DNA of 64,000 bases from a virus (IMGVR_UViG_3300028888_000052); one strand, 5' to 3'. Counted from the stretch's first letter, positions 15,643-64,000 are shown. Numbers and translations: made by a program. Notes: a model not told the origin generated them from the sequence alone.

Positions 15643-17407
15643 ATGGAAAATGTATTAGATACAATAAAAGATTTAGGAATGTTAAATCACCCAGCACCAA
15701 ATTGGGAAGGTACAGTTGATTCTACAGATGATTGTTTTATATGGTTAGCTGTAGATTCAAATGGTAATGAAAGAATGACAACTTGTGAAAAAGGATTCCA
15801 AAGATTTTCTCCAAAGCTTTATCATAGTAAATATTCAATAGATCCAGAAATAAGAAAAGCATCTTGGATAGAACAAAAGAAAATATGTTCTTATAATGAT
15901 ACTCAAATGAGAGATGACCATTGGGTAGAAATACCTAATGAAGGAGATATTGGCAAATTTGGTGCACCTCCAACATGGGCATATTTGCCAAAAGGATCTA
16001 TTAAGAAACTTATTGGGAGAGAATTAACTTGGGATGATGAACCAGTAAAATATAAAGGATAATTATGGAAGCATTTACAGATAATTTTACAAGTTGCTTT
16101 TGGTATTTGTTTATGCCAATTTGTCTTCTAATGATGTGTTATCTTTGGTATGATATGTTTGGTTCTGATAAACGAAAGCCAAAATATCGATTAGATAAAG
16201 ATGGATATTTGCAATTTTATTATCGCAGATATTCATGTTGGTTTGATTTTCCATTATGGAATGATAATAATGATGAACGAAAAGTAGAAGTTCATGATAG
16301 AGTTAGAGATTTAGATTATACTATTTCTTATATTGGCCCAGGTAGAGCTAAAATAAAATATTTATTTGATAACAACGCACCAATAACAAGAGATTTTATA
16401 ACAGATCATTTTAGAAAAACATATCCAGAATTTAAGAATTCTGAACAACTTTTTCAACTACATAATTTATATGTAGATAAAGAAAATGCTATATTAAATA
16501 AAATAGTAAAGGACCATATATTTAAAGCTCATGAAAGTAACAGTTGATAATATTGCAAATATTGAATATATTTATGACTATTATAATGTAGAAAATGGAA
16601 ATGGAATTTTAAAATCTTTAATGGTTGATTTGAAAGAATTAAATGAAATGCTTGTCAAGAAGAATCAATCAAATAAACAAATTTATATTGATTATGAAAA
16701 TAAGCATACAGAATATTCTCCTGAACGTACTGACCCATGCCCAGATTATTATGGAATGTTTTCATTAAGATTTGAAAAGAATCCTTATGAAAAGATTGGA
16801 GATATAATGACATTAAATGAATTAGATGATGCCATTTGTCTTTTAAGTAATTTTATAGAATTTGGATAATAATGGAAAATAAGTTAATTATACATGATTT
16901 CTTAGGAAAACCTTTAATTGTATGCCCATACCAATTTGAAAAATGTGAATATCAATTTCCTTGTGGAGATGGCGCATTTTTAGGTTGTACTTGTGATGAA
17001 TGCTATGAATTTGAAAAGTGTATAAAGAAATGTTAGAAGGAGAAGATGAGTCAATAATTGATTTTGAATTTAGTAATTTTATATCTCATGTATTTGATAG
17101 TTGTGAATCAAATCGAGGAGATATTATGAAATATCTTTCAAAATTTTTATTAAAAGAAGCAGTATTTTATGAAGATGAAGCAAAAGATTATGATTCCTAA
17201 AGATGAAAATGGTATTTGGGATTTATCAAACATAAATATTAAAAAAATAAAATTTAGTATACCTTATAAATGACAATAGAACAAGCTAAAGAATTGATAT
17301 ATGATGTATGTCCACACGGGAATGATTGTAATTTTCCTTGCGAACATTGCCAGAGATTTAAAGAATTATTAAAATGTGATTATCCAGAAGAATTTAATTA
17401 TGAATAA
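15643..17407 (+). other. Small hypothetical genes (15643-16062, 16065-16547, 16531-16869, 16872-17036 Cys-rich, ~17030-17200, 17270-17407 Cys-rich)
   Basis: ORF track plus manual translation of the short ORFs. Confidence 0.7.
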
Positions 17408-18131
17408 AGAAGAAAGAAGACAAATTGCTGAAAAGCATTTTATTGCAATGAAAAATCCAATGATTGAAGCTTTGACCAAGAAGTCTCAACAAGATTCAAT
17501 CATATATGACGATATTATTACTTTTGATAATGATATAGAAATTATAGATTCTACTACAGAAAAAGCAATATTTGATTTATATGGTCAAATTCCTTGTGTA
17601 TTGAATTTCGCAAGTTTTACAAGGCCTGGTGGAGGCTTTATTAAAGGTTCTATAGCTCAAGAAGAAGCATTATGTCATGTAAGTAATCTTTATAATGTTC
17701 TTTTAGGATTTGTAGATGAATATAATGAGAATTATAATAAGCCATCCTTTAATAGTGGTCTTTATGATAATTGGGCTATTTATTCACCTAATGTTTATTT
17801 CAAAATTGATAAAGTGGATAAACGTGCTAATGTTATAACTTGTGCAGCACCTAATTATAATGTATATAAAGAAAAATCAGATAATGAAGCACTTTATGAT
17901 GAAGTTCTTAGATCTAGAATTAAATATATTTTAGATATTGCTTATGCAAATGATCAAAAGATATTAGTTCTTGGGGCTTTTGGTTGTGGAGTATTTGGCA
18001 ATGATCCTTATAAAGTTGCATTACATTTCAAGATGTTATTAAGAAACTATAAATTCAAAAAGGTAATATTTGCAATACCAAATTCTTCTAATGGTAATTA
18101 TGAAGCATTCAAAAAAATTTTTGAGAAATGA
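17400..18131 (+). CDS. Bacterial-type PARG macrodomain (TIGR02452/DUF2263) ADP-ribosyl glycohydrolase
   Basis: LNFAS..PGGGF..GS.AQEEALC signature, IYSPNV, ITCAAP, LVLGAFGCGVFGNDP; ATG 17400 is the likely start. Confidence 0.9.
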   Translation: MNKEERRQIAEKHFIAMKNPMIEALTKKSQQDSIIYDDIITFDNDIEIIDSTTEKAIFDLYGQIPCVLNFASFTRPGGGFIKGSIAQEEALCHVSNLYNVLLGFVDEYNENYNKPSFNSGLYDNWAIYSPNVYFKIDKVDKRANVITCAAPNYNVYKEKSDNEALYDEVLRSRIKYILDIAYANDQKILVLGAFGCGVFGNDPYKVALHFKMLLRNYKFKKVIFAIPNSSNGNYEAFKKIFEK

Positions 18132-21100: not shown

Positions 21101-23411
21101 TATGAATGTGGTTATGGGTGGAATCCTTTAATACAAAAAGTAAAAAGAGTCATTCATAAATATAATTTAAAGCATAAAAATGATAAAGATTTTGAACCAC
21201 TTAGATTTTCCCAAGTGAAAGAGAAATGGGGTGCTTTAACTATATACACAAATTATTATGTACCAAGAGTTACAAAATATATAAGAAAAGTTGAATACGA
21301 ATCTTATAAAGTTTGTGAACAATGTGGTACTAGAAAAAATAATGTTCATTGTGAACGTACTCATGGTTGGTATATGACTTTATGTGATAAATGTAGGAAA
21401 GAAGAAATAGAAAGACATAATAAGAATATTTAAATGAAAATTTGGTTAAATGATTTAAAAAAAGACGATATATTTTATCATATTGTTTTAAGAAAAGTAT
21501 GGAAATGCAAACATTTAGGAGATGCTCATAATATGAATTATAGAATGCCTTCTATTAAATTTAAGTTTTTAGGAGGATGGCCTAAAGAATTAGAAGAAGT
21601 ATTAGGTAATGTGCATAGCGCTTTTGTTAATCAATATGTTTATGATAATGAAGAAGAAGCAAAAGAGGCTCTTATGGATAAATTAAAAAAAGAACTTCTT
21701 GATACTCAAATGAAAATAATCAACACAAAAGTTAGATTAAATGAACTAGAAGGACAAGAATTAGAAATTAAAAAATTATTAGAGAATGACCAACAAAACC
21801 TTAAAGAAAATATCTGAAAATCCTAATCTTATAGCATTTTGTAATAAAATTTTAGGATATAATACAATATTAGAAAATGAAACATCACGTAATATGTTTT
21901 TAGTATCTTTAATTAGTGCAGATACTTTAATTGATGAACATGCTTGTGATGATACAATTAATATATGTAATTTTATTTTATTTAACATGGATTTAATGAT
22001 GTTAGAAGAAGATGTGAAGAAAAGTGCCATAACTTATTTGAAAAAGGGAATTAGAATAGCTAAAAGAGATAAGAAACAATTTAATAGTAAATAATATGGA
22101 TAAATATTGGGTAAAAGATATTGAAAAACAATTTAGTTCTTATAATGCTGAAGAGTTAGATAAAATTATAGAAATAGCTAATAAACTTAAAAAGACAGCT
22201 AAGTCAAAACCAGAATTCTTAGATGTAATTCGTGAATATGTAAAAGATAAACCAGGAGTTACATTGATTTGTACTGGATATGTAGGTAAAGGTGCTTGGG
22301 AATCAGAAGGTGAATGTTTTTCTGAAAATTGGTACAATATTGATGAAAGAGAAATTGGTGGATTATTTGGTGAAAAGGGTAGAGAAGGTGACCCAGATCA
22401 TCTATTAAATAAATTCTCTACTAAAGAAGATTTTGTTAATGCTTGTGTTAATTCTATTTGGAATAGAAATGAAATAATGAAATTGACCAAAAACTCTTTG
22501 CACATGCCAGAATGGAAAGATAGTGATGCCGCTGATCTTTCTAATGGAGATTGTTCATATGAATTTATAGATATTAATACTAAAAAAATATATTGGATCA
22601 CTAATAATGCTTATGACTGATTATTATTCAAATGATACAGGTATAGTAGAATGGTCAGAATATCAATCTAAAACAGAAGCACCTGTTTTTTCTGAACCGA
22701 TATCTACTAATGGTCAAAAAATTATATTCGAAAGCACTATTTTATGAAAGATATAAATGCCGACACTCAATTTGACGAAAATGAATTAACAGATTATCCT
22801 TATTTAGGTATAGGTAGAAAACCAAGACCCGGAAAAATGATATCCGAAGAAGTATTAGAGAAAATAATAGGAGGATAATTTCTATATTAAATAAAATATT
22901 AAGTAATACATGTTAGTAAAAGAATTAATTGAAAAATTAAAAGAGCAAGATCAAGAAGCTCAAATAGTTTTTTGTGATAGAGCTGGGCTTATTAATGATT
23001 TAGTATTTGATAGAATATTTTCAGATGAATTTGAAGGTAGAAGAATTGTACCTTTATTTATAGGTCCAAGATATTTTGAAAAGGAGACACCAGAAATAGA
23101 AACTAAAGATGAAAATAGCGATACTAATTAATCCATTAAAATCATTACAAGCTAATATTATACTTGATCAAACGCCTTTCAAGTATGATATTAGCTCTAT
23201 ATCTGATAATAAACGATTTATCCCATCTGAAGATTTTTTTGGATTTTGTCAAGATTTGTTAGGAGATCAATTTGGTAAAAGAGAGAATTGCTATGTTGTG
23301 TGTCTTGATATAGATAATGAAGATTCACTTATAAATCCGATAAGTTTGGTGTTATCTAATTTTGTAGAAAACATAGATAAAGATTTTAAAGAAAATGAAA
23401 ATAACAGATGA
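18128..23411 (+). other. Run of hypothetical genes (18128-18790, 18807-19193, ~19183-19317, 19307-19720, 19717-20316 acidic, 20306-20611 lipoprotein-like, 20613-21092, 21089-21433 Zn-ribbon, 21434-21817, 21786-22094, 22096-22620, 22910-23131, 23109-23411)
   Basis: ORF track. 20306 has a signal peptide ending FLFLSC (lipobox-like); 21089 has QVKEKWG plus CxxCG...LCxxC. Confidence 0.7.
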
Positions 23412-23979
23412 ATATGTCTTTTTTTATAAAGATTGGTTAAGTAATTATCAAAGAACCAGTTTTGTTGCTAATATAGATGATATTCTTGGTAAGACTGATG
23501 GTTTGATGAAAGAATTGTTTACATCAACTGAACAAGGATTTATGTTTATTAAAGCATTGTATTTTAATGATTTAAAAACTGCATCAAAAATCATTAAGAC
23601 AAATAATCCGGCCGAATGTCGTAAACTTGGCCGTCAAGTTAAAGGATATAATGATGAAGCTTGGGATAAAATTAGATATGACGTATTTTATTATCTTAAC
23701 CTTGAAAAATATAAGCAAGATAGACAATTACAATATCTTTTATTAGATAAGAAATTTGATCATAAAATTTTTGTTGAAGCTTCTCCAATAGATAGGATTT
23801 GGGGTGTAGGTTATGCAGAAGATGATGATAGAATTGAATATCGAGAATTTGATTGGGGTAGGAACTATCTTGGCAAAATCATAACTAATATTAGAAATAG
23901 AATATTACTAAATAAATTAGAGGATCCAAATTGGAATATTTACAATTATTGGGGTAAAGGAGATGAAAGCGATAGGTAA
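23395..23979 (+). CDS. NADAR-family (YbiA/DUF1768) N-glycosidase / ADP-ribosyl hydrolase
   Basis: LSNY, STEQGFMFIKA.YF.D, RKLGRQVK, WD, KYKQ, VEASPIDRIWGVG, WGRNYLG. Confidence 0.92.
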   Translation: MKITDEYVFFYKDWLSNYQRTSFVANIDDILGKTDGLMKELFTSTEQGFMFIKALYFNDLKTASKIIKTNNPAECRKLGRQVKGYNDEAWDKIRYDVFYYLNLEKYKQDRQLQYLLLDKKFDHKIFVEASPIDRIWGVGYAEDDDRIEYREFDWGRNYLGKIITNIRNRILLNKLEDPNWNIYNYWGKGDESDR

Positions 23980-51709: not shown

Positions 51710-52580
51710 TTATTTTTTTAAGTCTAAGTAAACTCTTGATAATATATTTGCCAAATCATCCCAACTTACTGGATCACGCATAGAATGATAACTGGCATTG
51801 AATAAATTAATTACTGAACTGGATGCACCATTATCTTGTAATTTATCAAGGTACATATTTTCATTTACTGAAATTAAATCTTCTATTTTTTTCATATTAT
51901 TTATTAAATATTTATTTATGATAATGCCATATAGAATGTATCTTTACGAACTTCACCACCGACAATATAATATCTATCTAATGGGTATTTGTCTTGCAAT
52001 TTTTTATATGCTTCAAATTCCATATCATCATCAACAAATACTATAGAAGCTAATGTACTTCCCCATTTTGCAGATTCATGATTTTTATCAAATACTACAC
52101 GAACATTATAGGCATTTCTACTTTCTCCAGATATATTTTTAACACCTTTTAATAATCCTTTTGGATCGGCTTTATCTGGACAAGTACCCATGTTTTTCTT
52201 TACTTGGGATTCTTGATATTTACGATATTCTGAAGCTGTTTTTGAATCGGTTGTAATCCATCCACCATCCCAATTCTTTTCAGGCCATGGACCCATATAC
52301 ATTCTAACTTCATTTGATTCTGTTATATAACTATTTAGAGTTTTCATTATTTATTTGGAAATAATTTTGATTGAACTTCTTTAACATTTGTTTTAAATTT
52401 ACTACTGTGGTCATATAAGACTCCAAGTATAGACATCTTTGCTCCATTTGCAAGTTTTGGTAATAAATCATCAAGTTTTTCTCCTTCTATAAGTTTAAGA
52501 ATTAAAACTTGTGGGGTCATTTTATCAAAATCTGGTGCTGCATAGTGGTCTTCATTTATTCTTTGTATTAAATCTTTCAT
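51710..52580 (-). other. Three small proteins with capsid-targeting-like N-termini (51710-51895, 51916-52347, 52347-52580)
   Basis: MKKIEDLISVNE, MKTLNSYITE, MKDLIQRINE. Confidence 0.65.
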
Positions 52581-54226
52581 TATTTCTCCTTTTCTTTATT
52601 TTTCTTTTCTTCAGCTTCTTTAGCTTTCTTTTCTGCTTCTTCTTTGAAACTATAAGCTAAATCATCTTCAAGAATATGTTTCTTTGCAGGATTAATTTGA
52701 TAAGCCATACGAGACATTACATCACGATTTATAAGAACTTTTTGTTTCTTATTACGATTATCAACTAATGCAAATTCTACATCAAGAAGTTTACGTGAAC
52801 CAACTTGTATACATGGTATAATAACTGTAGTACGTTCTTCTGTTTGTTGACCAACAATAGCATGTGATTCACCTTCTTTCTTGAATTGATATTTCTTACC
52901 ATCAATAGTGGCAATAACAAGATTACCTTTATAATCTACTGAATCACATCCAATAGTTGAAGCTTTAGCACCATTACCTGTATCAAATTTAGCTTCAAAT
53001 TCAAATTCATCATCATTATCCATAATGAATTTTACATTTTCAAGATATCCTATAGCCTTAGGAGCAAGTACTAATTCATTAACATCATTGATTTCATCAA
53101 GAAGGATTTCCATAAAGTTATCATCAATAACTTCAGAAATACCATCTGTACCTGGAGAAGCATTATATTCAAGAACAACATTATCTCCAACTTCAGGATT
53201 AGAACCTTTTACAAGTGGCATAATGTCAACAGCACACCAAGGCATACCAGAAATTTTAGCAACTTTTAATGCTATTTCTTCTTGTTCTGGAGTAAGAGTT
53301 ACTTTTTCAGCAGTAGCACCAAGTGAAACATTAGAACGGAAGTCACCACCAATCTTCTTACGTTTCATTTGTGCAAGTATTTTTTGGTGAGTTCTCATTG
53401 TTAATACATGAACACGGATATCACCACCATCAGCTTCTTCTTTCTTTTGTACTAATAATTCACGTTCTTCATCAACTGCAAATACCATTTGAAGCATTGA
53501 AAGAATTGTTTTACCAGTTTGCATTGTAACACCAGTTCCACCATGACCATCAAGTATCTTTACAACATATTCTTTCTTTTTATCTTCATCTTCATTCTTA
53601 CCAACATCTGGATAAATTTCTTTAAGTTTCTTCTTAAGAGATTCTTCACCTTTGTTTATATCATTTTTTGATATAAGAGTAAATTTAGGTTGAGGAATTT
53701 CATAACGTTCCATTAAAACAGATGATTGATATTTATTAGAAGCTTTCTTAGCTGCTTGAATAGGGTTAAGTACAAAGAATCCCCAATCTTGAAGTTCTTT
53801 AATAAGTTCCATACATTCTTCAGAATCTTGTGCACCAAGACGAGTTATAACAATTGTATCAACATTAGATTGTTCATCAATTTTATATTTATTCTCATTA
53901 TCGTGCCATTCGATTACATCATCTGTAGCTTTATAATCAACTTCTTCTGCAACAAATGGGAATATATCAACACCTTTACCTTTAACAGCTTGTTCAAGAT
54001 TCTTTAATGTTTTATTAGTTTTTGAATCTCTATCATTTGTAAAGATAATGATATTTTTGAAGAAATATCCTTTCTTTTTATCTTCTTTTTCAGCTTCAGT
54101 TATTTGTGTTTCTTGTACTGGAGTTTCTTCTTTTTTTGATTCTTTGATACGACCAGCATATCTAAATTTCAAATCATCAACTGACTTGATATTTCTATAA
54201 TCAATAATATCGTTTAAATTTTTCAT
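52580..54226 (-). CDS. rimK: RimK-family ATP-grasp ligase fused to a retropepsin-like (RimB / 'ATP-dependent Zn protease') domain
   Basis: NK......L....IPQP, VVK..DGHGGTGV, DIRVHV, DFRSNVSLGA, AVDIM, LEYNASPG; C-terminal AKFDTGNGA and VLINRD. Confidence 0.85.
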   Translation of the reverse strand: MKNLNDIIDYRNIKSVDDLKFRYAGRIKESKKEETPVQETQITEAEKEDKKKGYFFKNIIIFTNDRDSKTNKTLKNLEQAVKGKGVDIFPFVAEEVDYKATDDVIEWHDNENKYKIDEQSNVDTIVITRLGAQDSEECMELIKELQDWGFFVLNPIQAAKKASNKYQSSVLMERYEIPQPKFTLISKNDINKGEESLKKKLKEIYPDVGKNEDEDKKKEYVVKILDGHGGTGVTMQTGKTILSMLQMVFAVDEERELLVQKKEEADGGDIRVHVLTMRTHQKILAQMKRKKIGGDFRSNVSLGATAEKVTLTPEQEEIALKVAKISGMPWCAVDIMPLVKGSNPEVGDNVVLEYNASPGTDGISEVIDDNFMEILLDEINDVNELVLAPKAIGYLENVKFIMDNDDEFEFEAKFDTGNGAKASTIGCDSVDYKGNLVIATIDGKKYQFKKEGESHAIVGQQTEERTTVIIPCIQVGSRKLLDVEFALVDNRNKKQKVLINRDVMSRMAYQINPAKKHILEDDLAYSFKEEAEKKAKEAEEKKNKEKEK

Positions 54227-54281
54227 AAATTATAAGTATTTTATATCTATATTTAATAATAAATATATTGACTTTAATAGG

Positions 54282-55313
54282 ATGTCAGAGTATAAAAAAT
54301 TAGAGAACTTAATTAAAGACAAAAAAATTCTATATATTCCAATTTATTCATGTTTTGATTACAAGACTAATGAATTGAATTTTAAGGCTGATGGAAATAT
54401 TAATAGATTTTTAACTACATTTTTCTTTTGTAGAAATTATAAATCTTTAACAATTTTATATCCACCAACAGGAAATAATATTAATTGGTTTGAAACAACT
54501 TGTAAAAATATATTACATGATGTTAATTTAGAACCATGTAGTTTTATTGTAAAATCTGCTAAAATTGAGAGAAGTCTTGATTTTGCAAATAATGTTTTCA
54601 ATAGTTTAAAGTGTCTTTATGAATATGATTTTATTATTGTAGAATCTCAACATTTGTTTTTGAAATTTTATAATAATGGATATAAGAATTTAATTTATTG
54701 GTGTCCAGTTTGTGCAACTAATGAAAAGACAAGAGATTTTCTTGAACCATTCAAAGAATTAGATAGATATATATTTAGTATTGCTGAACATACAATAGTA
54801 GCATCAGATGACCAAGTAACATATTATAAAACTATTTGTAAAGATAAAGAACCTATTCAAATTAAAAAACTTATTAATAGAATTTTACCATGTTTTAATT
54901 ATACAAAACAAAAAGATGTGATAGAATTATTCAATAAGTTTAATAGTTATCATAAAATATTCTTACCATTTAGATTAACAGATAGAGGTTATCAAATGCA
55001 AGAAATATTTGATTATCTTTATAATGAATATAGAGGAACAAAGTCATTTAAAGTTTTTTATACTAATCCTAATAATTGTGACATATATCAATTTGCAAAA
55101 AATGACTCTTATAAGAAATTATTCATAGATAATAATTTTATTCAAGTTAGTAAAGATAGAGATACTTATTATACAATTATTGATGATTGTAATGTAATTA
55201 TTCCTTATTTTGAAGATATTGAATTTATATGTCATGCGGCAATTGATGAATTCAAATTTGGTCATTGTACTGTATGTAAAAATTTGGAAGAATTTAAATC
55301 TATATTGAATTAA
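54282..55313 (+). CDS. Putative glycosyltransferase (GT-B-like), first gene of the modification operon
   Basis: Two Rossmann-like halves (ILYIPIYS...DGNINRF; YDFIIVES; IFLPFRLTD; IIPYFED) and gene context; the fold is inferred. Confidence 0.45.
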   Translation: MSEYKKLENLIKDKKILYIPIYSCFDYKTNELNFKADGNINRFLTTFFFCRNYKSLTILYPPTGNNINWFETTCKNILHDVNLEPCSFIVKSAKIERSLDFANNVFNSLKCLYEYDFIIVESQHLFLKFYNNGYKNLIYWCPVCATNEKTRDFLEPFKELDRYIFSIAEHTIVASDDQVTYYKTICKDKEPIQIKKLINRILPCFNYTKQKDVIELFNKFNSYHKIFLPFRLTDRGYQMQEIFDYLYNEYRGTKSFKVFYTNPNNCDIYQFAKNDSYKKLFIDNNFIQVSKDRDTYYTIIDDCNVIIPYFEDIEFICHAAIDEFKFGHCTVCKNLEEFKSILN

Positions 55314-55330
55314 ATATATATCTTATTGTT

Positions 55331-55987
55331 ATGCCACAAAAAATACAAGATAAATTATCAAGTACTTTAAGAATTTTTAGTGATTTAATTGAATCACCTA
55401 GTTGTATAGATTTAATAAATGAATTAAAAGAAGTAAAGAATCCAACATTTATATTTAGTGGAGTAGGAAAGAATTGGTATATTTGTGAGAAAGAAGTGAA
55501 GACATTTATATCGATGGGATTAAATGCTAAATCATTAGATTGCACGCATGCATTACATGGTGATTTAGGTATGCTTATGAATGACAAAGAGTTAAAATAT
55601 ATATTCTTTGTATCTAAGTCAGGCAAAACAAATGAGATGCATAAGCTTATAGATGTCATAGTTGATTTAAAAGAGAAGAATATCATCAAGAATATCAATT
55701 TAATTATGCTTTGTTTGAATCCAACTATAGAAGATTCGATAGATGCGACAAAGTTTGAGTTTATATTAAAACCATCTATTAAATTTAAAGATATTGCAAA
55801 CATTGAATTAGATGATAGAAATCTTATACCAACATTGTCTATTAATATAACACAAGGTGTCTTAGATTATATTGGAGTAAATATCTATGAAAATAATCCA
55901 GAATTAATTGAAAATTATAAATATAACCATCTTGGTGGCTCAAATGGAAGAGCATTAGGAATGGAAAAATATTTAGAAGAAATATGA
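55331..55987 (+). CDS. kdsD: SIS-domain sugar-phosphate isomerase, arabinose-5-phosphate isomerase (KdsD/GutQ)-like, no CBS
   Basis: FSGVGKN, TFISMG, ALHGDLGM, SKSGKT.E, IPT.S, HLGGS.G (cf. HPGG.LG). Confidence 0.8.
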   Translation: MPQKIQDKLSSTLRIFSDLIESPSCIDLINELKEVKNPTFIFSGVGKNWYICEKEVKTFISMGLNAKSLDCTHALHGDLGMLMNDKELKYIFFVSKSGKTNEMHKLIDVIVDLKEKNIIKNINLIMLCLNPTIEDSIDATKFEFILKPSIKFKDIANIELDDRNLIPTLSINITQGVLDYIGVNIYENNPELIENYKYNHLGGSNGRALGMEKYLEEI

Positions 55988-57546
55988 ATATAATTATAGT
56001 AGCAGGTGGATTAGGTACAAGATTTCAAGATCTTTCAGTTTTTCCAAAAATTTTATTACCAACAAAAGCATATAACTCATTATTAGAACAAAATTATGAG
56101 ATATTTGTAAATGGATGGGATCATAAATTGTTTTTAATTATAAATGAAAAATATTATGATATGACAGTTAATTATTGTCATGTTAATAATATTGATGTAA
56201 AAATTATTAAGTCTACAAATACAAATGGATCATATAATACAATATTAAGTGTATATGATCAGATACCTCATGAAAATGTTTTATTTATTTGGTCAGATTT
56301 GGAATTGTCTTCTATAGATGATTCATTCAATCTAATAGATGATGATACAATATTCACTTATAATGGAGAATATAGATATGGTATAGATGATGGTAAAATT
56401 ACATATCATGATTTTTATGATGGTAATATTCCAGGAATTTATTATTTGACAAATCTTAATAGATATTTTTCTGATTATAGATTGGATGAAAATGATAATT
56501 ATGATTTAATAGAAGCAATTAAAGAATTTAATTATGATATTAATGCATGTGAGTATCAAGGTAAATTAGAAGAGTATAGAGATAAACAAACATATATAAA
56601 TCATATTAAAGAAACTAATTCAAATGTAGAACTGTCATTCAAAACAAGATTTTTTAATATGATTGAACCTGATTATTCAATACCGGGTGAATATAAAATC
56701 AAAAAGTGGGCGGTTAATTCTGATTATTATCATCTTATTAGAAAAGAATATGATTGGTATAATAAGCTTAAACAACAAGATTTAGGTAATTATACTTATG
56801 ATATGATTGTACCAAAAGTATATGATGGTATGATAAAAAATAATACAGGATTTGTAATGGCTTTATTGGATAATTATATGCCATTACATGAATTTATTAA
56901 AACAAGACCAGTAGAAGATGTTCAAAGAGTATATAAGACAATTCATCTCCATTTAGATGCATTATCAAGATGCAAGAAAGAAGTTGATGATTTAGATTTT
57001 TATCAAGATTTGAAAAAAGAAATTATCACAAAAGTAATAGATAGATGCGAGAAAATTAAATATATGCTTATTAAATATGAACCAGAACAATTACAAGTTT
57101 TATTAGAGGAAACATATAATTATTTATGTGATAATACAGAAATTATAAATCATAAGACTTTATATTGTGTTTGTCATGGTGATTTAAATGGATCTAATGT
57201 TTTAGTTCATAAAATTACAAATGATGTTAAGTTTATAGATCCACGTGGATATTTTGGTTATACAACATTTTATGGTTGGCAAGATTATGAATATGCAAAA
57301 TTATTATATTGTTTAGATGGGTATGATGATTTTAATAATCTTCCACAAGTATATGGATTAGATATTCCACAAAGATTGAAGTGGTTTGGTAAGATTAACT
57401 ATCTTAATAAAAAGAAATATAAAGTACTTGTAGGAGTAATTTGGATAGCATTAGCAGGTTATATTTCACAAGATATTATGAAAGCAAATATAGCTTATGA
57501 GTATGGTATACAAATGTTGCAAGAGTCATTAAAGGAAAATGAGTAA
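55984..57546 (+). CDS. Sugar-1-phosphate nucleotidyltransferase fused to an APH/choline-kinase-like phosphotransferase
   Basis: N-terminal IIVAGGLGTRF...PKILLP and WSD; C-terminal HGDLNGSN, FIDPRG.FG and YEYAK. Confidence 0.85.
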   Translation: MNIIIVAGGLGTRFQDLSVFPKILLPTKAYNSLLEQNYEIFVNGWDHKLFLIINEKYYDMTVNYCHVNNIDVKIIKSTNTNGSYNTILSVYDQIPHENVLFIWSDLELSSIDDSFNLIDDDTIFTYNGEYRYGIDDGKITYHDFYDGNIPGIYYLTNLNRYFSDYRLDENDNYDLIEAIKEFNYDINACEYQGKLEEYRDKQTYINHIKETNSNVELSFKTRFFNMIEPDYSIPGEYKIKKWAVNSDYYHLIRKEYDWYNKLKQQDLGNYTYDMIVPKVYDGMIKNNTGFVMALLDNYMPLHEFIKTRPVEDVQRVYKTIHLHLDALSRCKKEVDDLDFYQDLKKEIITKVIDRCEKIKYMLIKYEPEQLQVLLEETYNYLCDNTEIINHKTLYCVCHGDLNGSNVLVHKITNDVKFIDPRGYFGYTTFYGWQDYEYAKLLYCLDGYDDFNNLPQVYGLDIPQRLKWFGKINYLNKKKYKVLVGVIWIALAGYISQDIMKANIAYEYGIQMLQESLKENE

Positions 57547-58096
57547 GAAATTAATAGTAATAGAAGGATTTGATAGATGTGGCAAAGATACTTTAATGTC
57601 AGATCTATCAAATCTTAATAATGATTTTTATATTTATGGTAATGATTTGACAGGATTGCCAAAATATGATAAAGAACAAGAAGAATTTTTAGTTTGGTTA
57701 AATAAATTCATTAATAAACAAGTTAATGATCTGAATGAATTATTTAAAACACATGATACAATTGTCATGTGTAGATTGTTGATTTCTGATGAAGTATATA
57801 GCACTTTATTTAATAGAGAGCATACAGCTATTAAATATATGGATCAACTTAAAGATGTAGAGATAATTCATTATTGTTTATTATTTAAGAATTTTGATGA
57901 ATATTGTGATAGATTGAAAAAAATTGGAGATGAAAATATCCAATATGATTATGAAAATTTTAATAAAATTAATCAATTATATTTAGATAAACTTCAAGAA
58001 GTAAATTACAAATATTATATAAATTATATTTATTCATATACATCTAAAAGAAGTATTTTAGAAAATTTTTATACTTATTATGATAAAGTTAAATAA
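57539..58096 (+). CDS. Thymidylate-kinase-like (d)NMP kinase
   Basis: P-loop IVIEGFDRCGKDT; R..IS..VY. Confidence 0.8.
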   Translation: MSKKLIVIEGFDRCGKDTLMSDLSNLNNDFYIYGNDLTGLPKYDKEQEEFLVWLNKFINKQVNDLNELFKTHDTIVMCRLLISDEVYSTLFNREHTAIKYMDQLKDVEIIHYCLLFKNFDEYCDRLKKIGDENIQYDYENFNKINQLYLDKLQEVNYKYYINYIYSYTSKRSILENFYTYYDKVK

Positions 58097-59324
58097 TTTT
58101 ACAAAAGGAGAAAAGAAAGGAAAGACCATAGGAATTTTTAGCCCAAGTAGATTATCACCATATAAAGAGACAAAATTACCTGGTTGGCAAGAGTCATATA
58201 ATCTTATAAAATTCTTGAAAGATTATGTTGGTTATGACAAAGTATATATATTGAATTGGTATAAGAATGACAAGAGATATGAAAAGCTTAAAGAGCAATA
58301 TCCATATCTTTATAACTTAAAGAATATAGAACAAGCTTCTAAAGATATTGATGAGATATTACAAAAGCCAGATGGGTTAGTATGTTTTGGTGGAGCTTTA
58401 CACCCAACATATTATTATATTTGTTCATTGATTTGGTATAAGAGAAATGATCCTAATTTCAAATTATATTATTATGATCATGACCCACAATTTAATAAAT
58501 TCAATTTTGTAAAAGGAATATCTTCAAGAAAATCTTTAATAAATGTTGGAATGGGAGATTTGGAAAAAGAATATTCTGATATTTATTTAGAGCACCAAAA
58601 AGAATTAATAGAATATATTGATAACAATACTATTGGTCTTTATGGCGGTTTAGATTATGACTTATATTGCAAAAAACTTAAGGGTGATATGCCCAATATG
58701 AAACAATGGTTATATTTTGACATCAATGAATATTCTTTTGCTAATAATTTTGATTTCTCAAAGATTTTAACTGATATTAAGTTTGAAGATAAATATAAGT
58801 TTGGATATTTTGGTATTAAACGTAGAAATAAAATTAGACAAGATATCATCAATAATTTATTAGGTCAATTAGATAAATCCGGAATTATTATTGGTAATGT
58901 TAGTGAAATTATTGATTGTTCTTCTAAGTTTAATTGTATAGAATCTATGCAAATACCAGATTTGTATTATTTCTTGAATAACAATATTAAGTCATCATTA
59001 TTTATAACTGACCCAGCAAATTGGAATAATTATAAAAGTTTTAGATTTTTTGAGAATTTACTTTTAGATTATGTAGGTTTTATTTATAAGAAACAAGATG
59101 TTAATAAAATCTATATTAATAATGAAGAACTTAAATCATACATATATGTTGATGAAGATGATTTCTTAGGAAAAGTAAATCAAATATCTAGTGATGAGAA
59201 ATTATATAAGCATTTAGTTTATCTTGAAAGAAAAGAGTTTTATACCCAAATGTCATCATATATGTTAGACGAGAATAAAGTAATATTTGAAGATTGGTTA
59301 AATAAGCATAAAGATTATGAATAA
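58080..59324 (+). CDS. GT-B glycosyltransferase, resembles phage DNA beta-glucosyltransferase
   Basis: YYDHDP, FGYFG..RR, SSLFI.D...N.KSFRFFE.L and LYV-like elements parallel T4 BGT (FTDP, YGG.FR, TLRVWE). Confidence 0.55.
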   Translation: MIKLNNFTKGEKKGKTIGIFSPSRLSPYKETKLPGWQESYNLIKFLKDYVGYDKVYILNWYKNDKRYEKLKEQYPYLYNLKNIEQASKDIDEILQKPDGLVCFGGALHPTYYYICSLIWYKRNDPNFKLYYYDHDPQFNKFNFVKGISSRKSLINVGMGDLEKEYSDIYLEHQKELIEYIDNNTIGLYGGLDYDLYCKKLKGDMPNMKQWLYFDINEYSFANNFDFSKILTDIKFEDKYKFGYFGIKRRNKIRQDIINNLLGQLDKSGIIIGNVSEIIDCSSKFNCIESMQIPDLYYFLNNNIKSSLFITDPANWNNYKSFRFFENLLLDYVGFIYKKQDVNKIYINNEELKSYIYVDEDDFLGKVNQISSDEKLYKHLVYLERKEFYTQMSSYMLDENKVIFEDWLNKHKDYE

Positions 59325-60348
59325 ACAATTATCTGATAAAATATTTATATGTGGTCCATGTGCAGTTGAATCTAAGGAACAATTATTAGATATTGCAAAA
59401 GGATTAAAAGAAAATAATATAAATTGTCTTTTTAGAGCAGGTGTTTGGAAGCCAAGAACTAATCCTGGTAATTTTGAAGGTTTAGGAGAAATTGCAATCA
59501 AATGGATGTGTGAAGTTCGTAGAATATATGGATTTCAAATAGGTTGGGAAGTAGCTACCGAAGAACATATTTTGTTATCTCTTAAATATAAACCAGATTT
59601 TTTATGGATAGGAGCTAGAACTACGGTAAATCCATTTATGGTTGAAAAAATTGCCCAATTATTAGGAGATACAGATATTTCTATTTTTGTAAAAAATCCA
59701 TCAAATTCTGATTTTTCTCTTTGGTGTGGTGCTATTGAGAGATTATTAAATCATAATGTAAATGTAGTTGGAGTTATTCATCGTGGATTTTCTTCACAAA
59801 ACTTAGCAGATTATCGTAATGCACCTATGTGGTCAATTCCTATTAAACTTAAGAATAAATTCCCTAATTTATTATTGTTAGGAGATCCAAGTCACATGGG
59901 AGGTCATGATTTTCTTATTAAGGAAATTTCTCAAAAAATGATGAATTTGAATTATGATGGATTAATGATTGAAGTCCATAATAATCCTTTAGAAGCTTGG
60001 ACTGATGCTAAACAACAAATTACTCCCGAAGATTTAAAAGATATATTAGATACATTAGAAATACCTATCGAAAACACTAATAATGGTTTAGTTGAATATA
60101 GAATGCAAATTGATGAAATTGATGACCAAATTCTTTCATTAGTTAAACAAAGATTCGATATTACTAAAAAAATAGGTGAATGGAAACAAGAACATAATGT
60201 AGCTATATTCCAACAAGGTAGATATGAAGAAATATTAAAGAAAAATGAGATTAGAGCTAAACGATATAATTTAGATTTAGATTTAATAAATAATATCTTT
60301 AATGTTATACACGAAAAATCAGTAGAACAACAATTGAATAATGTATAA
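59317..60348 (+). CDS. Bifunctional type I-beta DAH7P synthase with C-terminal AroQ chorismate mutase
   Basis: GPCAVES, RAGVWKPRT.P..FEG.G, WIGART, VKNP, HRGF, DPSH, GLMIEVH..P..AWTDA.QQ; CM domain YR.QIDEID..IL.L..QR.....KIG..K. Confidence 0.92.
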   Translation: MNKQLSDKIFICGPCAVESKEQLLDIAKGLKENNINCLFRAGVWKPRTNPGNFEGLGEIAIKWMCEVRRIYGFQIGWEVATEEHILLSLKYKPDFLWIGARTTVNPFMVEKIAQLLGDTDISIFVKNPSNSDFSLWCGAIERLLNHNVNVVGVIHRGFSSQNLADYRNAPMWSIPIKLKNKFPNLLLLGDPSHMGGHDFLIKEISQKMMNLNYDGLMIEVHNNPLEAWTDAKQQITPEDLKDILDTLEIPIENTNNGLVEYRMQIDEIDDQILSLVKQRFDITKKIGEWKQEHNVAIFQQGRYEEILKKNEIRAKRYNLDLDLINNIFNVIHEKSVEQQLNNV

Positions 60349-60928
60349 AAATCGTCAAAAATTAGAAGTTTATAATAATTGGTTTGAGTATTTTAAAGAT
60401 TCTATAAGTAAAGATCATTTAGGATATAAAATTATATTTGTAAGTGATTGTGATGGTATTTTAACAGATGGTCGTAGCTATTTCAATGAAGTTAAGACTC
60501 ATAAGAGTTATGGATCCTATGATAAAGAAGCCGTCAAATTCATATGTGATTATATGGATGATGTAATATATTTTGTATCAGATGATAAAATAGGTTCTAA
60601 GATAACTGAGAATAGAATTAATCATCTAAAAAAATCTACTAATAATAAGCAAGTTTATTTCATGGTTCAATCACCTCAAGAAAGATATGAGTTGGTTAAA
60701 TCTTTGAAAACTCCAAAAAATATAGTTGTATTTATAGGAGATTCATTATCGGATATTCCAACATTATCTGTAGCTGATATTGCTATGACAACTAATAATG
60801 CACCTGGTGAAGTAAAGAAATATTGTAATTACATATCTTTATTAAATGGCGGAGTTGGTGGATTTGCTGATTGTATTTTTCACTTTTATGAAAATTTAAA
60901 AGATGTTAAATCTATTTTAAATATATAA
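60341..60928 (+). CDS. HAD phosphatase, KdsC/YrbI-like
   Basis: SDCDGILTDG, FIGDSLSD, GG.GG. Confidence 0.8.
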   Translation: MYKNRQKLEVYNNWFEYFKDSISKDHLGYKIIFVSDCDGILTDGRSYFNEVKTHKSYGSYDKEAVKFICDYMDDVIYFVSDDKIGSKITENRINHLKKSTNNKQVYFMVQSPQERYELVKSLKTPKNIVVFIGDSLSDIPTLSVADIAMTTNNAPGEVKKYCNYISLLNGGVGGFADCIFHFYENLKDVKSILNI

Positions 60929-60948
60929 ATATATGTTAAAATTTGTGA

Positions 60949-62040
60949 ATGGTTAACCAATTTAAAGTAGGATGTAATTTTGATTTAAAGTTAATAGACA
61001 AAGCAGTAGAATTAAACGAGAAATATAAAGGTAAAGCAGAAATTAAAGAATGGTTTGGTAGTGATGCACAAAATCATTTTGTAACTGCAAGACCAAAATG
61101 GAGATTACCAGAGATTGATGAAAAATTCTTTAAGGAATTTATTCAAAGATCAAGAGATAATGGTATTGTATTTAATTATACAATGAATAGCATTCAACCT
61201 TATGGATCAAAAGCAAATATGGTTGAACATAAACAAGAAATTCAAGATTTTGTTAAGAAACTTGAAGATATGGGTGTTTATCGTATCACATTTGCTAATC
61301 CAATGATGGGAATGTTTATTAGAGAAGTATCAAATATTGAATTAGAAATAAGTTGTATTTCACATATAGATACAGTTACACAATTCAAATATTTTCATGA
61401 GACATTAGGAGTTAATAAATTCTGTAATTCAATTTTGAAAAATAGAAATAGAGATTTCTTGAAAAATGTAGCAGAATATTGTAATGCTAATGGTATTATT
61501 CTTGAATTACTTGCTAATGAATTTTGTGGAGTAGCTGGCCCAAAATATGCAACACATTGCCCATATCGTGATTCTTGTTATTTATGTCATGCAACAAATG
61601 TGACAAAAGAAGATAGTATGTCATATGATAATTATCCAATGCATTTTTGTATGTTTGCAAGAGATGATCATAGTGATGAGGCTTGGTTAAGAATGAGATG
61701 GATTAGACCAGAGGATTTACATTATTACAATGACATTGGAATTAATTATTTCAAGATTTCTGGACGTACAGGTAGCACAGAATACGTTGCCAAGATGATG
61801 GAAGCATATATGTCAGAAAATTGGGAAGGTAATTTATTAAATCTTTGGAAACCACTACAAACAATATATAATGGCAAGAATGAATTTGAAGAAGAATTAC
61901 CAATACAGATTGATAATAAGAAATTAGATGGATTCTTAGACCATTGGTTTGATAAGAATTTTGAATGTGAAAATGAGATGTGTGGTACAACTTGTAATTA
62001 TTGTGAAAGATTTATGAATAAAATCAAAGGTAATGTTTAA
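60949..62040 (+). CDS. Peptidase U32-family Fe-S protein (putative O2-independent hydroxylase)
   Basis: FNYTMN, ELLANEFC-x8-C-x5-C, WIRPEDL..Y..IGI..FKISGR, C-terminal C-x4-C-x3-C-x2-C. Confidence 0.85.
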   Translation: MVNQFKVGCNFDLKLIDKAVELNEKYKGKAEIKEWFGSDAQNHFVTARPKWRLPEIDEKFFKEFIQRSRDNGIVFNYTMNSIQPYGSKANMVEHKQEIQDFVKKLEDMGVYRITFANPMMGMFIREVSNIELEISCISHIDTVTQFKYFHETLGVNKFCNSILKNRNRDFLKNVAEYCNANGIILELLANEFCGVAGPKYATHCPYRDSCYLCHATNVTKEDSMSYDNYPMHFCMFARDDHSDEAWLRMRWIRPEDLHYYNDIGINYFKISGRTGSTEYVAKMMEAYMSENWEGNLLNLWKPLQTIYNGKNEFEEELPIQIDNKKLDGFLDHWFDKNFECENEMCGTTCNYCERFMNKIKGNV

Positions 62041-62056
62041 ACATTACCTTTTTTTT
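62026..62056. terminator. Terminator ending the modification operon (convergent junction)
   Basis: AAAGGTAATGTTT/AAACATTACCTTTTTTTT. Confidence 0.85.
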
Positions 62057-62373
62057 ATGTATTTATTTTTTGAAGATTTATTATTTGTGACTTGTACTAT
62101 TATATCTTTTAATTTCTGTATATAATCTTTATTATCTTCTGGGTATATATCATTATCCACGAAATTCACAAATTCTTGTAATTGATTTTTTAATTCTAAA
62201 TTATCATTTAATAGTAGTTCTAATTCTTTTACATTAAATTTTGTTTTATTATATTCCGCAACTAATGTCAAAAATTCTGATAATTGATTTGGATTGAATT
62301 CAAACCATTTATCTAACATCCAAAATAAATTGTTATCTAATTCTTCTAATATAAATTCATTTAATGTTTTCAT
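62044..62373 (-). CDS. Hypothetical protein, capsid-targeting-like N-terminus
   Basis: MKTLNEFILE. Confidence 0.7.
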   Translation of the reverse strand: MKTLNEFILEELDNNLFWMLDKWFEFNPNQLSEFLTLVAEYNKTKFNVKELELLLNDNLELKNQLQEFVNFVDNDIYPEDNKDYIQKLKDIIVQVTNNKSSKNKYIKKR

Positions 62374-63032
62374 TTTTTATAAACTGCTATTTCACCATCT
62401 TTATTTTTCTTTATATCAAAATACTTTTCATATAATTTTGGTTTAGTATTATATTCTTTAATATTTAATGTCAAACCTTTATAACCTGAAAGTGATTTAA
62501 TTTCTTTAATAACAATGTTGATTAATCCTTCACTAATACCTGAATTAAAATGATTTTTATCTATTTGCATACTTAATATATGGTCATAATCTTTATACTC
62601 TAAAAATTCTGAAGGTCTTTCATATTTATCATGTGTTATAAAGAATAAACAACCATATACATTATCTTTATCTTCAGCAACTGCTATTCTTATTTTATTA
62701 TCATATCCTTTTTCAACAATATCTTTACCTTTATTAAGATTGTTGTTTTTGTAAATCTTCTCTTTTATTTGGTCATATTTATAAATATTATATTCGATTT
62801 TATTTTCTTCTGTATCTTGTTTATCTGAAGATTTTTCTGAAGATGTTTTCGAAGGTTCCAAAGTATGATGCTCTGGTTTTTCTTTTTTCTTTTTCTTGAA
62901 TTTTCCTTTAATCCAACTCCATGCTTTCTTAACACCATCTTTAAATTTTCCTTCATCTATTTGTTCTTCTAACAAGAATTTCAAGTCTTCTTCAATTTGG
63001 TATTTTATTAAATATTCTTTTAAGCTTTCCAT
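62370..63032 (-). CDS. GNAT-fold acetyltransferase-like protein with a processed-type N-terminus
   Basis: IAVAE....VYG.L...HILSMQID..HFNSGIS..LI, GLTL...LYEK; N-terminus MESLKEYL...IDE-G. Confidence 0.5.
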   Translation of the reverse strand: MESLKEYLIKYQIEEDLKFLLEEQIDEGKFKDGVKKAWSWIKGKFKKKKKEKPEHHTLEPSKTSSEKSSDKQDTEENKIEYNIYKYDQIKEKIYKNNNLNKGKDIVEKGYDNKIRIAVAEDKDNVYGCLFFITHDKYERPSEFLEYKDYDHILSMQIDKNHFNSGISEGLINIVIKEIKSLSGYKGLTLNIKEYNTKPKLYEKYFDIKKNKDGEIAVYKK

Positions 63033-63709
63033 TATAGTTTATATGTTAATATTTCTTTATTATCTTTCATTGAGGTAAATCCTAATTTTGTTAAGTTTGC
63101 TTTCATTTTAGGATGAAGTGGTTTAGCCGTTATACCATTATAATTTCCATCTTTATTAATAACATGTAAAGCCCAATCATTTAACATAGCTTTTAATACT
63201 GGTGTGCTTTCTTTTACACATAAAGAAGTTTCTATACCAACTAAATGAATAAACCCATCTACATAGTTTATATTTTTATCATACATTATTATACCAACAA
63301 AATATGTAGGATCTATAGAATCTTTTGAAGCTTTTGTTTCTTCTTCATTAGCTTCATTTTTAGTTGTGACTGGTCTGTACCAATATGGTAAACATTCTGG
63401 TTTTAATTCTTTTTCCTCAGTACCATTAGTATCTATAAGATATTTCTTAGGCATTTGTAACATTTGGTTAATTACTGTAAAACCTATGACTTTATCTGAT
63501 ATGATTTTCTTTACAATTTGATCTTTTGAAAAATCTTCAAACTTAAATGTTTGATTATTTTTAGGTTTAGCTAAATTGTCCACATCAACATCTATCGGTT
63601 GAAGTTTGTTATCTTTTATAAGTTGTTGCATTGTATCATAAACTTGCTTCAACCATTTTTCAACTTTAACACCTAAAGACTCATTTATAAACTCTTGTAA
63701 ACGTTTCAC
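63032..63709 (-). CDS. Hypothetical protein, capsid-targeting-like N-terminus, possible degenerate GNAT fold
   Basis: GTG start, MKRLQEFINE-S; FVGIIMY...IHLVGIET...LTKLGF. Confidence 0.55.
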   Translation of the reverse strand: MKRLQEFINESLGVKVEKWLKQVYDTMQQLIKDNKLQPIDVDVDNLAKPKNNQTFKFEDFSKDQIVKKIISDKVIGFTVINQMLQMPKKYLIDTNGTEEKELKPECLPYWYRPVTTKNEANEEETKASKDSIDPTYFVGIIMYDKNINYVDGFIHLVGIETSLCVKESTPVLKAMLNDWALHVINKDGNYNGITAKPLHPKMKANLTKLGFTSMKDNKEILTYKL

Positions 63710-63737
63710 AATTTTAACTTATTTATTATTTAAAAAT

Positions 63738-63766
63738 AAAAAAGAGGTAATAATTATTACCTCTTT
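63738..63766 (-). terminator. Intrinsic terminator
   Basis: AAAAAAGAGGTAATA/TATTACCTCTTT, giving a U tract on the - strand. Confidence 0.75.
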
Positions 63767-63792
63767 CTAATGATTTATTTAATTAAAGATTA

Positions 63793-63999
63793 TTAAATAC
63801 CTGCATAAGTATATGTATAATCATCAATTACTACTGGGATTTTTTCTGCCATTACACGTACAGTTGTTTCATCTACAATTGGGTTAGAAGTAATTATATT
63901 ACCATTTCTTACACCATTTTCAACAGTTGTTAATCTATAACCATTGTATGGTGTAGCTGTAGCACTAGCTTTACCACCTTCTTGTACAACCCTTGAAGA
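63793..63999 (-). CDS. 3' end of a gene truncated by the window edge; Ig-like/beta-repeat virion protein
   Basis: ...VQEGGKASATATPYNGYRLTTVENG...TVRVMAEKIPVVIDDYTYTYAGI-stop. Confidence 0.55.
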   Translation of the reverse strand, partial: SSRVVQEGGKASATATPYNGYRLTTVENGVRNGNIITSNPIVDETTVRVMAEKIPVVIDDYTYTYAGI

Positions 64000-64000
64000 T

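Follow-up and report, generated by a model that had tools for sequence, protein, structure and literature searches.

A phage DAH7P synthase-chorismate mutase fusion as a probable prephenate supply for a neighboring U32 protein in a DNA hypermodification operon

[quoted passage not shown] These three ORFs are the last of an eight-gene operon (54282-62040; Table 1) whose frames overlap or nearly abut and which is closed by the only terminator-like site in 54000-62500, none being internal. The fusion probably supplies prephenate as the oxygen donor with which the U32 protein would hydroxylate C5 of a pyrimidine independently of O2, as part of DNA hypermodification. That the fusion feeds prephenate to U32 had been proposed in an original prediction, and our comparisons support this reading. 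The same prediction gave the fusion the whole of 59317-62040 and placed it two genes from U32. The fusion is real and the two genes are close neighbors, but it covers only 59317-60348 and, because the interval also holds the phosphatase and U32 itself, a single gene lies between them.

In the mechanism that we propose, the DAH7PS domain would drive carbon into the host shikimate pathway at its committed, feedback-controlled step, overriding host control, the host enzymes AroB to AroC would continue to chorismate, and the CM domain would convert chorismate to prephenate. U32 would use prephenate as oxygen-atom donor to hydroxylate C5 of a pyrimidine deoxynucleotide without O2, most likely turning dCMP into 5-hydroxy-dCMP, and would take over the role played by the flavin- and O2-dependent ThyA-like synthase of RB69-type phages. 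The neighboring kinase would then move the hydroxylated product toward the triphosphate, from which the polymerase would bring it into DNA. In parallel, the arabinose-5-phosphate (A5P) isomerase, the AfhE-like enzyme, and the phosphatase would make a nucleoside diphosphate (NDP)-pentose, arabinose by homology, to be attached by the glycosyltransferase(s) to the new hydroxyl in DNA. The use of prephenate by phage U32, the U32 substrate, and a high stoichiometric demand are what we infer in this scheme. With about one prephenate per cytosine, demand would be ~0.27 per base pair at 27% G+C, which for a genome of ~280 kb means that each copy would consume on the order of 75,000 molecules of prephenate; this size comes from CheckV, which estimated fragments of 74-86 kb to be 26-30% complete. 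A need of this size could plausibly be why the phage has the supply genes.

Judged by sequence homology, the operon is a homolog of the RB69 gp45-55 and HY126 Afh clusters. The RB69 cluster makes arabinosylated 5-hydroxycytosine, as described in a 2026 paper (PMC13326640), and glycosylated 5-hydroxycytosine systems have been reported in RB69, HY126 (Afh genes), DLP3, and RL38J1 (PMC13326640, citing Mahler et al. 2025 and He et al.). In RB69, 5-hydroxy-dCMP is made by gp48, a flavin-binding ThyA homolog that takes its oxygen from O2, as determined by 18O2 labeling, whereas the U32 protein gp50 is limited to a table entry, as ‘sugar or heterocycle reductase’ and with no assigned role, in a paper silent on both U32 and prephenate (PMC13326640). 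The window contains the gene set for NDP-arabinose (A5P isomerase, AfhE-type bifunctional enzyme, and an analogous phosphatase), and its DAH7PS-CM fusion, between the kinase and glycosyltransferase genes and the phosphatase, occupies the place that the ThyA-like gene has in cultured phages. A six-frame hidden Markov model screen detected no ThyA-family ORF in the window. Within 10 kb on either side of the related, rumen-type U32 loci described below, the same screen found a single one, at locus L016. It is a canonical Asn-type thymidylate synthase with the ‘PYN’ motif and ‘ALPPC’, and therefore a dTMP synthase rather than a dCMP hydroxylase. PF00303 was likewise absent from related IMG/VR fragments (200 kb), which extend up to 75 kb on the upstream side of the cluster and 64 kb on the downstream side; in one complete T4-like genome, used as positive control, both Td and the ThyA-like enzyme were detected. 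An operon homologous to glycosyl-5-hydroxycytosine clusters but devoid of the O2-dependent hydroxylase fits the genome-scale base hydroxylation that had been predicted.

Both halves of the fusion appear to be intact. It matches the Pfam families DAHP_synth_1 over residues 9-244 (E 7e-26; 91.1 bits for a gathering cut-off of 25.5) and CM_2 over residues 261-339 (E 1e-20; 73.9 bits for a cut-off of 27), and it is a divergent member of its class, scoring 130-140 bits where the NCBIfam equivalog cut-offs (TIGR01361, NF009239) are 267-335. Compared with the Pyrococcus furiosus DAH7PS (1ZCO), it retains the metal ligands Cys15, His193, Glu219, and Asp230 as well as the KPRT45-48 loop, Arg101, Lys126, and Arg156, all of them invariant in 10 phage homologs. 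Its CM domain aligns without gaps with the Escherichia coli enzyme (1ECM), with Arg262, Arg279, Lys290, Arg302, Ser335, and Gln339 at the positions of Arg11, Arg28, Lys39, Arg51, Ser84, and Gln88. At the positions of Asp48 and Glu52 it has instead Gln299 and Tyr303, a Gln...Arg-Tyr/Trp pattern common to Bacteroidota bifunctional DAH7PS-CM homologs of ~50% identity. The inactive CM domain that the original prediction had named as speaking against it is thus not suggested by the sequence. Those Bacteroidota enzymes are also the nearest cellular relatives of the fusion: its phage clade spans 73-99% identity and the next step down, at ~50%, consists of Bacteroidota proteins. The class has been studied biochemically in Prevotella nigrescens and Porphyromonas gingivalis, and prephenate does inhibit the Prevotella-type fusions (PMC8408635), as stated in the prediction, which added that the phage copy may be desensitized.

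The U32 protein matches PF01136 (Peptidase_U32; 37.2 bits, cut-off 22.4) and is 52% identical to RB69 ORF050c (gp50). Its AlphaFold2 model is of good quality (pLDDT 89, pTM 0.90) except for a low-confidence Cys-rich loop at residues 190-250, and the best fold match in the Protein Data Bank (PDB) is the U32 protein MK0906 (5D88, E 8.7e-8), followed by generic TIM barrels. Nine cysteines are invariant in 27 phage U32 homologs: C159; C193, C204, C210, and C234; and C340, C345, C349, and C352. When the U32 alignment was used as a profile against PDB sequences, it returned only noise and no relative. The phage proteins are a large, divergent branch of the family, with 1641 clusters at 50% identity. 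Among cellular members, UbiU/V take from prephenate the oxygen atom that they transfer (PMC10990095), and RlhA (ho5C2501 in 23S rRNA) and TrhP (ho5U34 in tRNA) are prephenate-dependent as well (PMC5727448, PMC6599085).

The link between prephenate and U32 might be right and the substrate or the stage of hydroxylation different: U32 could act on dUMP, in a 5-hydroxyuracil-based modification, on cytosine already in DNA, on a sugar, or on another heterocycle. TrhP acts on uridine (PMC6599085), a dCMP deaminase lies between U32 and the fusion at locus L019, ThyX adjoins U32 at L055, and the label given to RB69 gp50 leaves room for a sugar or heterocycle (PMC13326640). We consider these variants unlikely, though worth keeping in mind, given that the homologous cultured systems have 5-hydroxycytosine, that RlhA shows a U32 protein able to act at cytidine C5, and that a dTMP-kinase-like nucleotide kinase adjoins U32 in most contexts examined (L016 and L036 included), which fits a mononucleotide substrate.

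The association of DAH7PS and CM with U32, whose check across phage genomes the original prediction had proposed, is recurrent. Every context retrieved for the clade of the fusion (L002-L008) shows the same operon, U32 included, and at L004 the fusion is its best conserved gene (79% identity, compared with 40-69% for the others). A metagenome scan with the U32 alignment yielded 46 loci. At the 25 with enough flank, where U32 is 59-95% identical to that of the window, DAH7PS and/or CM are visible 0.8-6.2 kb from U32, on either side and at varying positions. Both are present at 24 of these rumen-type loci, the last one (L030) showing the CM end alone at a contig edge, and a ThyA-like 5-hydroxy-dCMP synthase was seen at none of the 25. 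Ten more loci in the same range of U32 identity have no DAH7PS; they are short contigs that end within ~3 kb of U32. At Straboviridae-type loci (U32 50-54% identical to that of the window) the ThyA-like gene is always found, and type I-beta DAH7PS/CM never.

Phylogenetic analysis distributes these DAH7PS genes among at least three lineages, of which two have the fused form and the other the split one. The first fused lineage comprises window-type and L027-type branches, and the second (L016, L031, L033, L041) is set apart by strongly supported branches with bacterial sequences in between. In the third, which is very distant (L020, L025, L026), a 264-aa DAH7PS is separate from the CM, a protein of 93 aa that has the classical Arg-Glu pair. 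Moreover, the identities of U32 and DAH7PS are uncoupled, with 82% and 46%, respectively, at L016 and 69% and 85% at L021. Locus L016, on a 409-kb contig (ODAJ012187655.1), has the thymidylate synthase and a 604-aa fusion of glycosyltransferase-like and dTMP-kinase-like parts (L016, 6971-9863), followed by U32 and DAH7PS-CM, with no arabinose genes within 10 kb. Locus L019 (963-8262) has in order the anaerobic ribonucleotide reductase NrdD, a 319-aa protein of unknown function, U32, dCMP deaminase, DAH7PS-CM, and a protein similar to the T4 beta-glucosyltransferase, that is, the pair within a different sugar module and again without arabinose genes. At L076, a stand-alone type I-beta DAH7PS overlaps the start codon of a distant U32 gene (40% identical). 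Since the pair also occurs without arabinose genes, DAH7PS/CM is linked to U32 and not to the sugar pathway. The L016 cluster is followed by an IMPDH/GMP-reductase-like gene (14061-15293), of a Pfam family present in the window at 427-1761. A 45% identical DAH7PS-CM opens the contig of a human-fecal ‘Bacteriophage sp.’ (MT837090), with no U32 in the 10.7 kb downstream; as an unverified record that is cut on the upstream side, it tells nothing about the association.

This recurrence bears directly on the label that an automated pipeline would give to the fusion, that of an ordinary auxiliary metabolic gene (AMG) raising phenylalanine and tyrosine for phage protein synthesis, its adjacency to U32 being meaningless. 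Aromatic amino-acid synthesis is indeed controlled at DAH7PS and CM, and PHROG labels phage DAH7PS as AMG. Such a role is nevertheless improbable, since at least three independent DAH7PS/CM lineages lie within a few kb of U32 inside DNA-modification operons, and type I-beta DAH7PS is nearly missing from cultured phages otherwise, with 12 records of which most are tiny fragments. In addition, as the original prediction had noted, we found neither prephenate dehydratase nor prephenate dehydrogenase in the window in a Pfam search of every ORF of at least 190 aa plus ten ORFs of 150-199 aa.

The sugar genes of the operon suggest another role for the fusion, in which its DAHP_synth_1 domain would make a 3-deoxy-ulosonic acid phosphate, DAH7P or 3-deoxy-D-manno-octulosonate 8-phosphate (KDO8P), which the KdsC-like enzyme would dephosphorylate and which would next be activated and attached to DNA as the sugar, leaving CM a purely regulatory part. 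An A5P isomerase, a DAHP_synth_1 enzyme, and a KdsC-like phosphatase in one operon do resemble KdsD-KdsA-KdsC, and in the uncultured huge phage LR756500 a KdsA-like gene adjoins an A5P isomerase. We rejected this reading as very improbable. The barrel carries KPRT, the erythrose 4-phosphate/phosphoenolpyruvate loop that marks DAH7PS, where KDO8P synthase has KANRS, and scores 140 bits with the NCBIfam type I-beta DAH7PS model compared with 42 bits for KDO8P synthase; CM persists with classical catalytic residues even as a separate gene; at L016 and L019 the pair stands without A5P isomerase, AfhE, or HAD genes; no KdsB-type CMP-transferase was seen; and the arabinose pathway already accounts for the A5P isomerase, AfhE, and phosphatase of RB69 and HY126, which have no type I-beta DAH7PS. 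The gene of the huge phage (LR756500.1, 462 kb; L075, 10001-12945), 25% identical to that of the window and without U32 nearby, looks like part of a KDO8P synthase pathway and not like a DAH7PS. Finally, U32 could modify host or phage tRNA or rRNA, like TrhP and RlhA, with DAH7PS-CM in support, and all characterized nucleic-acid U32 enzymes do act on RNA while the window has the RNA-repair genes RtcB and RNA ligase, but this is the least probable reading of all, as the window has no tRNA genes, U32 has in every lineage nucleotide kinases, DNA glycosyltransferases, and genes of replication around it, and a catalytic RNA modification would presumably need no dedicated prephenate supply.

The distribution of these genes in cultured phages is also informative about the O2-independent hydroxylation that we favor. 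U32 homologs occur in 222 records of cultured T4-like phages, the matches listed being from Enterobacterales phages, and tblastn detected type I-alpha DAH7PS in 213 cultured phage records. The tallies by host (DAH7PS/U32) nearly coincide: they are 125/137 for Escherichia, 25/26 for Klebsiella, 12/14 for Shigella, 7/7 for Proteus, and 6/7 for Serratia; eleven records are in both lists among the matches listed, and HY126 is in that of DAH7PS. The U32-positive Klebsiella phage Marfa, for example, encodes a type I-alpha (AroF/G/H-like) DAH7PS at 131515-132504, ~100 kb from its cluster. No CM_2 domain was detected in RB69 or Marfa, so that such phages would rely on host CM. Clusters of the AfhE type are found in 351 records, 57 of them from Acinetobacter phages, and among the phages with such clusters U32 is lacking from five of Acinetobacter, one of Tenacibaculum, and one of Synechococcus. 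The first two of these hosts are aerobes and the third is oxygenic. Five phages with AfhE clusters that we tested (QL01, dhaeg, VR5, Morttis, PTm5) have neither U32 nor type I-alpha DAH7PS, and in Morttis, QL01, and PTm5 we directly observed AfhE together with the ThyA-like gene. Thus, phages of aerobes have the ThyA-like enzyme alone, many phages of facultative anaerobes have both enzymes, and the rumen-type loci have U32 plus a prephenate supply with the ThyA-like gene unseen; the rumen or ruminant-gut habitat of the related contigs is an inference from their record names (STEW19, XIEF21). This pattern is analogous to that of TrhO/TrhP and UbiI,H,F/UbiU,V, pairs in which one side depends on O2 and the other does not (PMC6599085, PMC10990095). 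A more ambitious proposal, to which we give even chances, is that these giant phages would infect anaerobes and have in U32 their only deoxycytidylate (or DNA-cytosine) 5-hydroxylase, an O2-independent one consuming one prephenate per modified base, which would explain the repeated capture of DAH7PS/CM. In RB69-type phages, U32 would serve as an anaerobic back-up to the flavin/O2 ThyA-like synthase.

Several observations weigh against the supply of prephenate to a U32 hydroxylase. The search for a ThyA-like gene covers about half of a ~280-kb genome type, and a distal copy could lie beyond. The scan of IMG/VR with a single protein gave one relative and that with an alignment three rumen-type fragments, all at most 30% complete. 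The cysteine spacing of the phage U32, CX10CX5CX23C plus a C-terminal CX4CX3CX2C, is not the canonical CX6CX15CX3/4C of U32 [4Fe-4S] proteins (PMC6747719), and no NCBIfam family, including RlhA, TrhP, and UbiU/V, matches it at E <= 0.01. Even the cellular U32 enzymes have yet to be shown to act directly as hydroxylases in vitro (PMC10990095), and the support for the chemistry proposed for the phage ones is genomic. The more distant phage U32 genes neighbor DNA polymerases, MazG-type pyrophosphatase, UDG, ThyX, UDP-galactopyranose mutase, and NrdD, contexts of DNA metabolism and glycosylation in whose short available flanks DAH7PS is often unseen. Lastly, RB69, Yersinia phage TG1, Pectobacterium phage PM2, and Serratia phage 92A1 have U32 without any DAH7PS, so the link between U32 and type I-alpha DAH7PS is one-sided and not universal.

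Table 1. Predicted features of the operon and the evidence for them (window coordinates).
Coordinates	Strand	Feature	Evidence
54282..55313	+	Putative DNA glycosyltransferase, 343 aa, operon gene 1	No Pfam match; homology weak
55331..55987	+	Arabinose-5-phosphate isomerase (SIS/KpsF type), RB69 gp55 homolog	NCBIfam kpsF 3e-12; phrog_5670 4e-25
55984..57546	+	Bifunctional sugar kinase/nucleotidyltransferase, AfhE-like (RB69 gp52:53)	phrog_4098 1.5e-67
57539..58096	+	dTMP-kinase-like P-loop nucleotide kinase	phrog_761 1e-9; NCBIfam dTMP kinase P-loop
58080..59324	+	414-aa protein, family unassigned, possibly a second glycosyltransferase	No match in Pfam, NCBIfam, or PHROG
59317..60348	+	DAH7P synthase (type I-beta, ~59341-60048) + AroQ chorismate mutase (~60097-60333), 343 aa	Pfam, NCBIfam
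60341..60928	+	KdsC-like HAD sugar-phosphate phosphatase	NCBIfam KDN-9-P and KdsC models 8e-12 to 2e-8, under cut-off
60949..62040	+	Phage-type U32 family Fe-S protein, RB69 gp50 homolog	Pfam Peptidase_U32; phrog_5757 1e-130
62026..62051	.	Bidirectional terminator-like hairpin closing the operon	11-bp stem, T-run on both strands

The remaining genes of the operon vary in their closeness to those of RB69. The first one gives a weak phmmer match (E 0.0016) to gp46, part of arabinosyltransferase 1 (gp46:47); its relatives head the phA-/phB1-type clusters at 46-83% identity and occur at ~35% in split-type clusters. The A5P isomerase is 29% identical to gp55. The AfhE-like protein, with 24-30% identity to gp53 and gp52 and with Pfam NTP_transferase and APH matches that are both under the gathering cut-offs, takes its function from its homolog (PMC13326640). 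The P-loop kinase is of the type and in the position of gp45, with no significant sequence similarity to it. The 414-aa protein has 87-96% identical copies at L013, L021, and L054 and is absent from L004-L008, so it is confined to the closest relatives. The phosphatase shows no similarity to gp51 by BLAST or phmmer and is a predicted functional analog, not a homolog, of AfhF/gp51. The window showed no kinase of the DNMK type and no dCTPase; DNMK is present near the modification cluster at L006-L008. A megablast search of cultured phages with 54000-64000 returned no match.

Divergent from the operon, a 548-aa RimK-type ATP-grasp ligase (52580-54226, minus strand; Pfam RimK 1e-20) has the same position at most rumen-type loci (L005-L008, L013, L021, L027, L028; 68-92% identity) and may be part of the modification system, for instance in amino acid addition. 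On a 212-kb phage contig (L005, 5425-7187), the first glycosyltransferase gene of the modification operon is separated from that of the A5P isomerase by an inserted IS605-type element, which encodes a Y1 transposase as well as a TnpB/Cas12f-like OrfB. A T4-like sequence (IMG/VR 3300035208_005360; L067, 4821-11137) has a 37% identical U32 adjoining UDP-galactopyranose mutase, NrdD, and a GT2-like protein, which recalls the galactofuranosyl-5-hydroxycytosine system of Rhizobium phage RL38J1, with U32 replacing any visible ThyA-like gene. Elsewhere in the window, the RtcB RNA ligase (5945-7261), a second RNA ligase (14928-15635), a microbial PARG-type ADP-ribose glycohydrolase (17376-18131), and a NADAR domain protein (23395-23979) look like a set for RNA repair and reversal of ADP-ribosylation that is probably involved in counter-defence.

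A full-text literature search found no paper linking U32, prephenate, and phage DNA modification. If the proposed role is true, DNA precursors would for the first time be the substrate of a U32 enzyme, and prephenate-dependent hydroxylation, known for ubiquinone since 2024 and inferred for two RNA modifications, would come to include DNA hypermodification. The ability of phages of the anoxic gut to have glycosylated hydroxy-pyrimidine DNA when the sole described synthase is O2-dependent would be explained, and RB69 gp50, conserved yet role-less in the pathway paper of 2026, would gain a role. What pipelines label as an aromatic amino-acid AMG would become a gene that supplies the co-substrate of an anti-restriction DNA chemistry, with the host shikimate metabolism rewired to provide an organic oxygen donor on the scale of a whole genome. 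The phage operon, which would bring U32, a kinase, and a source of prephenate together in compact form, could also serve for reconstituting the hydroxylase activity of U32.

Known systems resemble different parts of this operon. With the Bacteroidota enzymes PniDAH7PS and PgiDAH7PS-CM (PMC8408635, PMC12202928), the fusion shares the I-beta barrel followed by a C-terminal AroQ CM, ~50% identity, and the Gln/Tyr(Trp) pattern of the CM active site, but it is 10-20 residues shorter and is encoded inside a DNA-modification operon and not among aro genes. With RlhA, TrhP, and UbiU-UbiV (PMC5727448, PMC6599085, PMC10990095, PMC6747719), the phage U32 has in common the Pfam family, the TIM-barrel fold, and invariant cysteine clusters, and the pyrimidine C5 hydroxylation of RlhA and TrhP is, by analogy, the chemistry that we propose for it. 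It differs from them in belonging to a divergent subfamily with another cysteine spacing and no NCBIfam match, in its presumed substrate, a deoxynucleotide or DNA instead of RNA or a quinone, and in a demand that would be stoichiometric and genome-scale, with a dedicated co-substrate supply encoded alongside. The clusters of RB69, HY126, DLP3, and RL38J1 share with the window the A5P isomerase, AfhE-type enzyme, sugar-phosphate phosphatase, dTMP-kinase-like kinase, glycosyltransferase(s), and U32. Their published hosts are aerobic or facultative, whereas the record names of the contigs related to the window point to the rumen or ruminant gut; the window phosphatase belongs to another HAD type; and where these clusters have the ThyA-like flavin/O2 synthase of 5-hydroxy-dCMP, the window has the DAH7PS-CM fusion instead.

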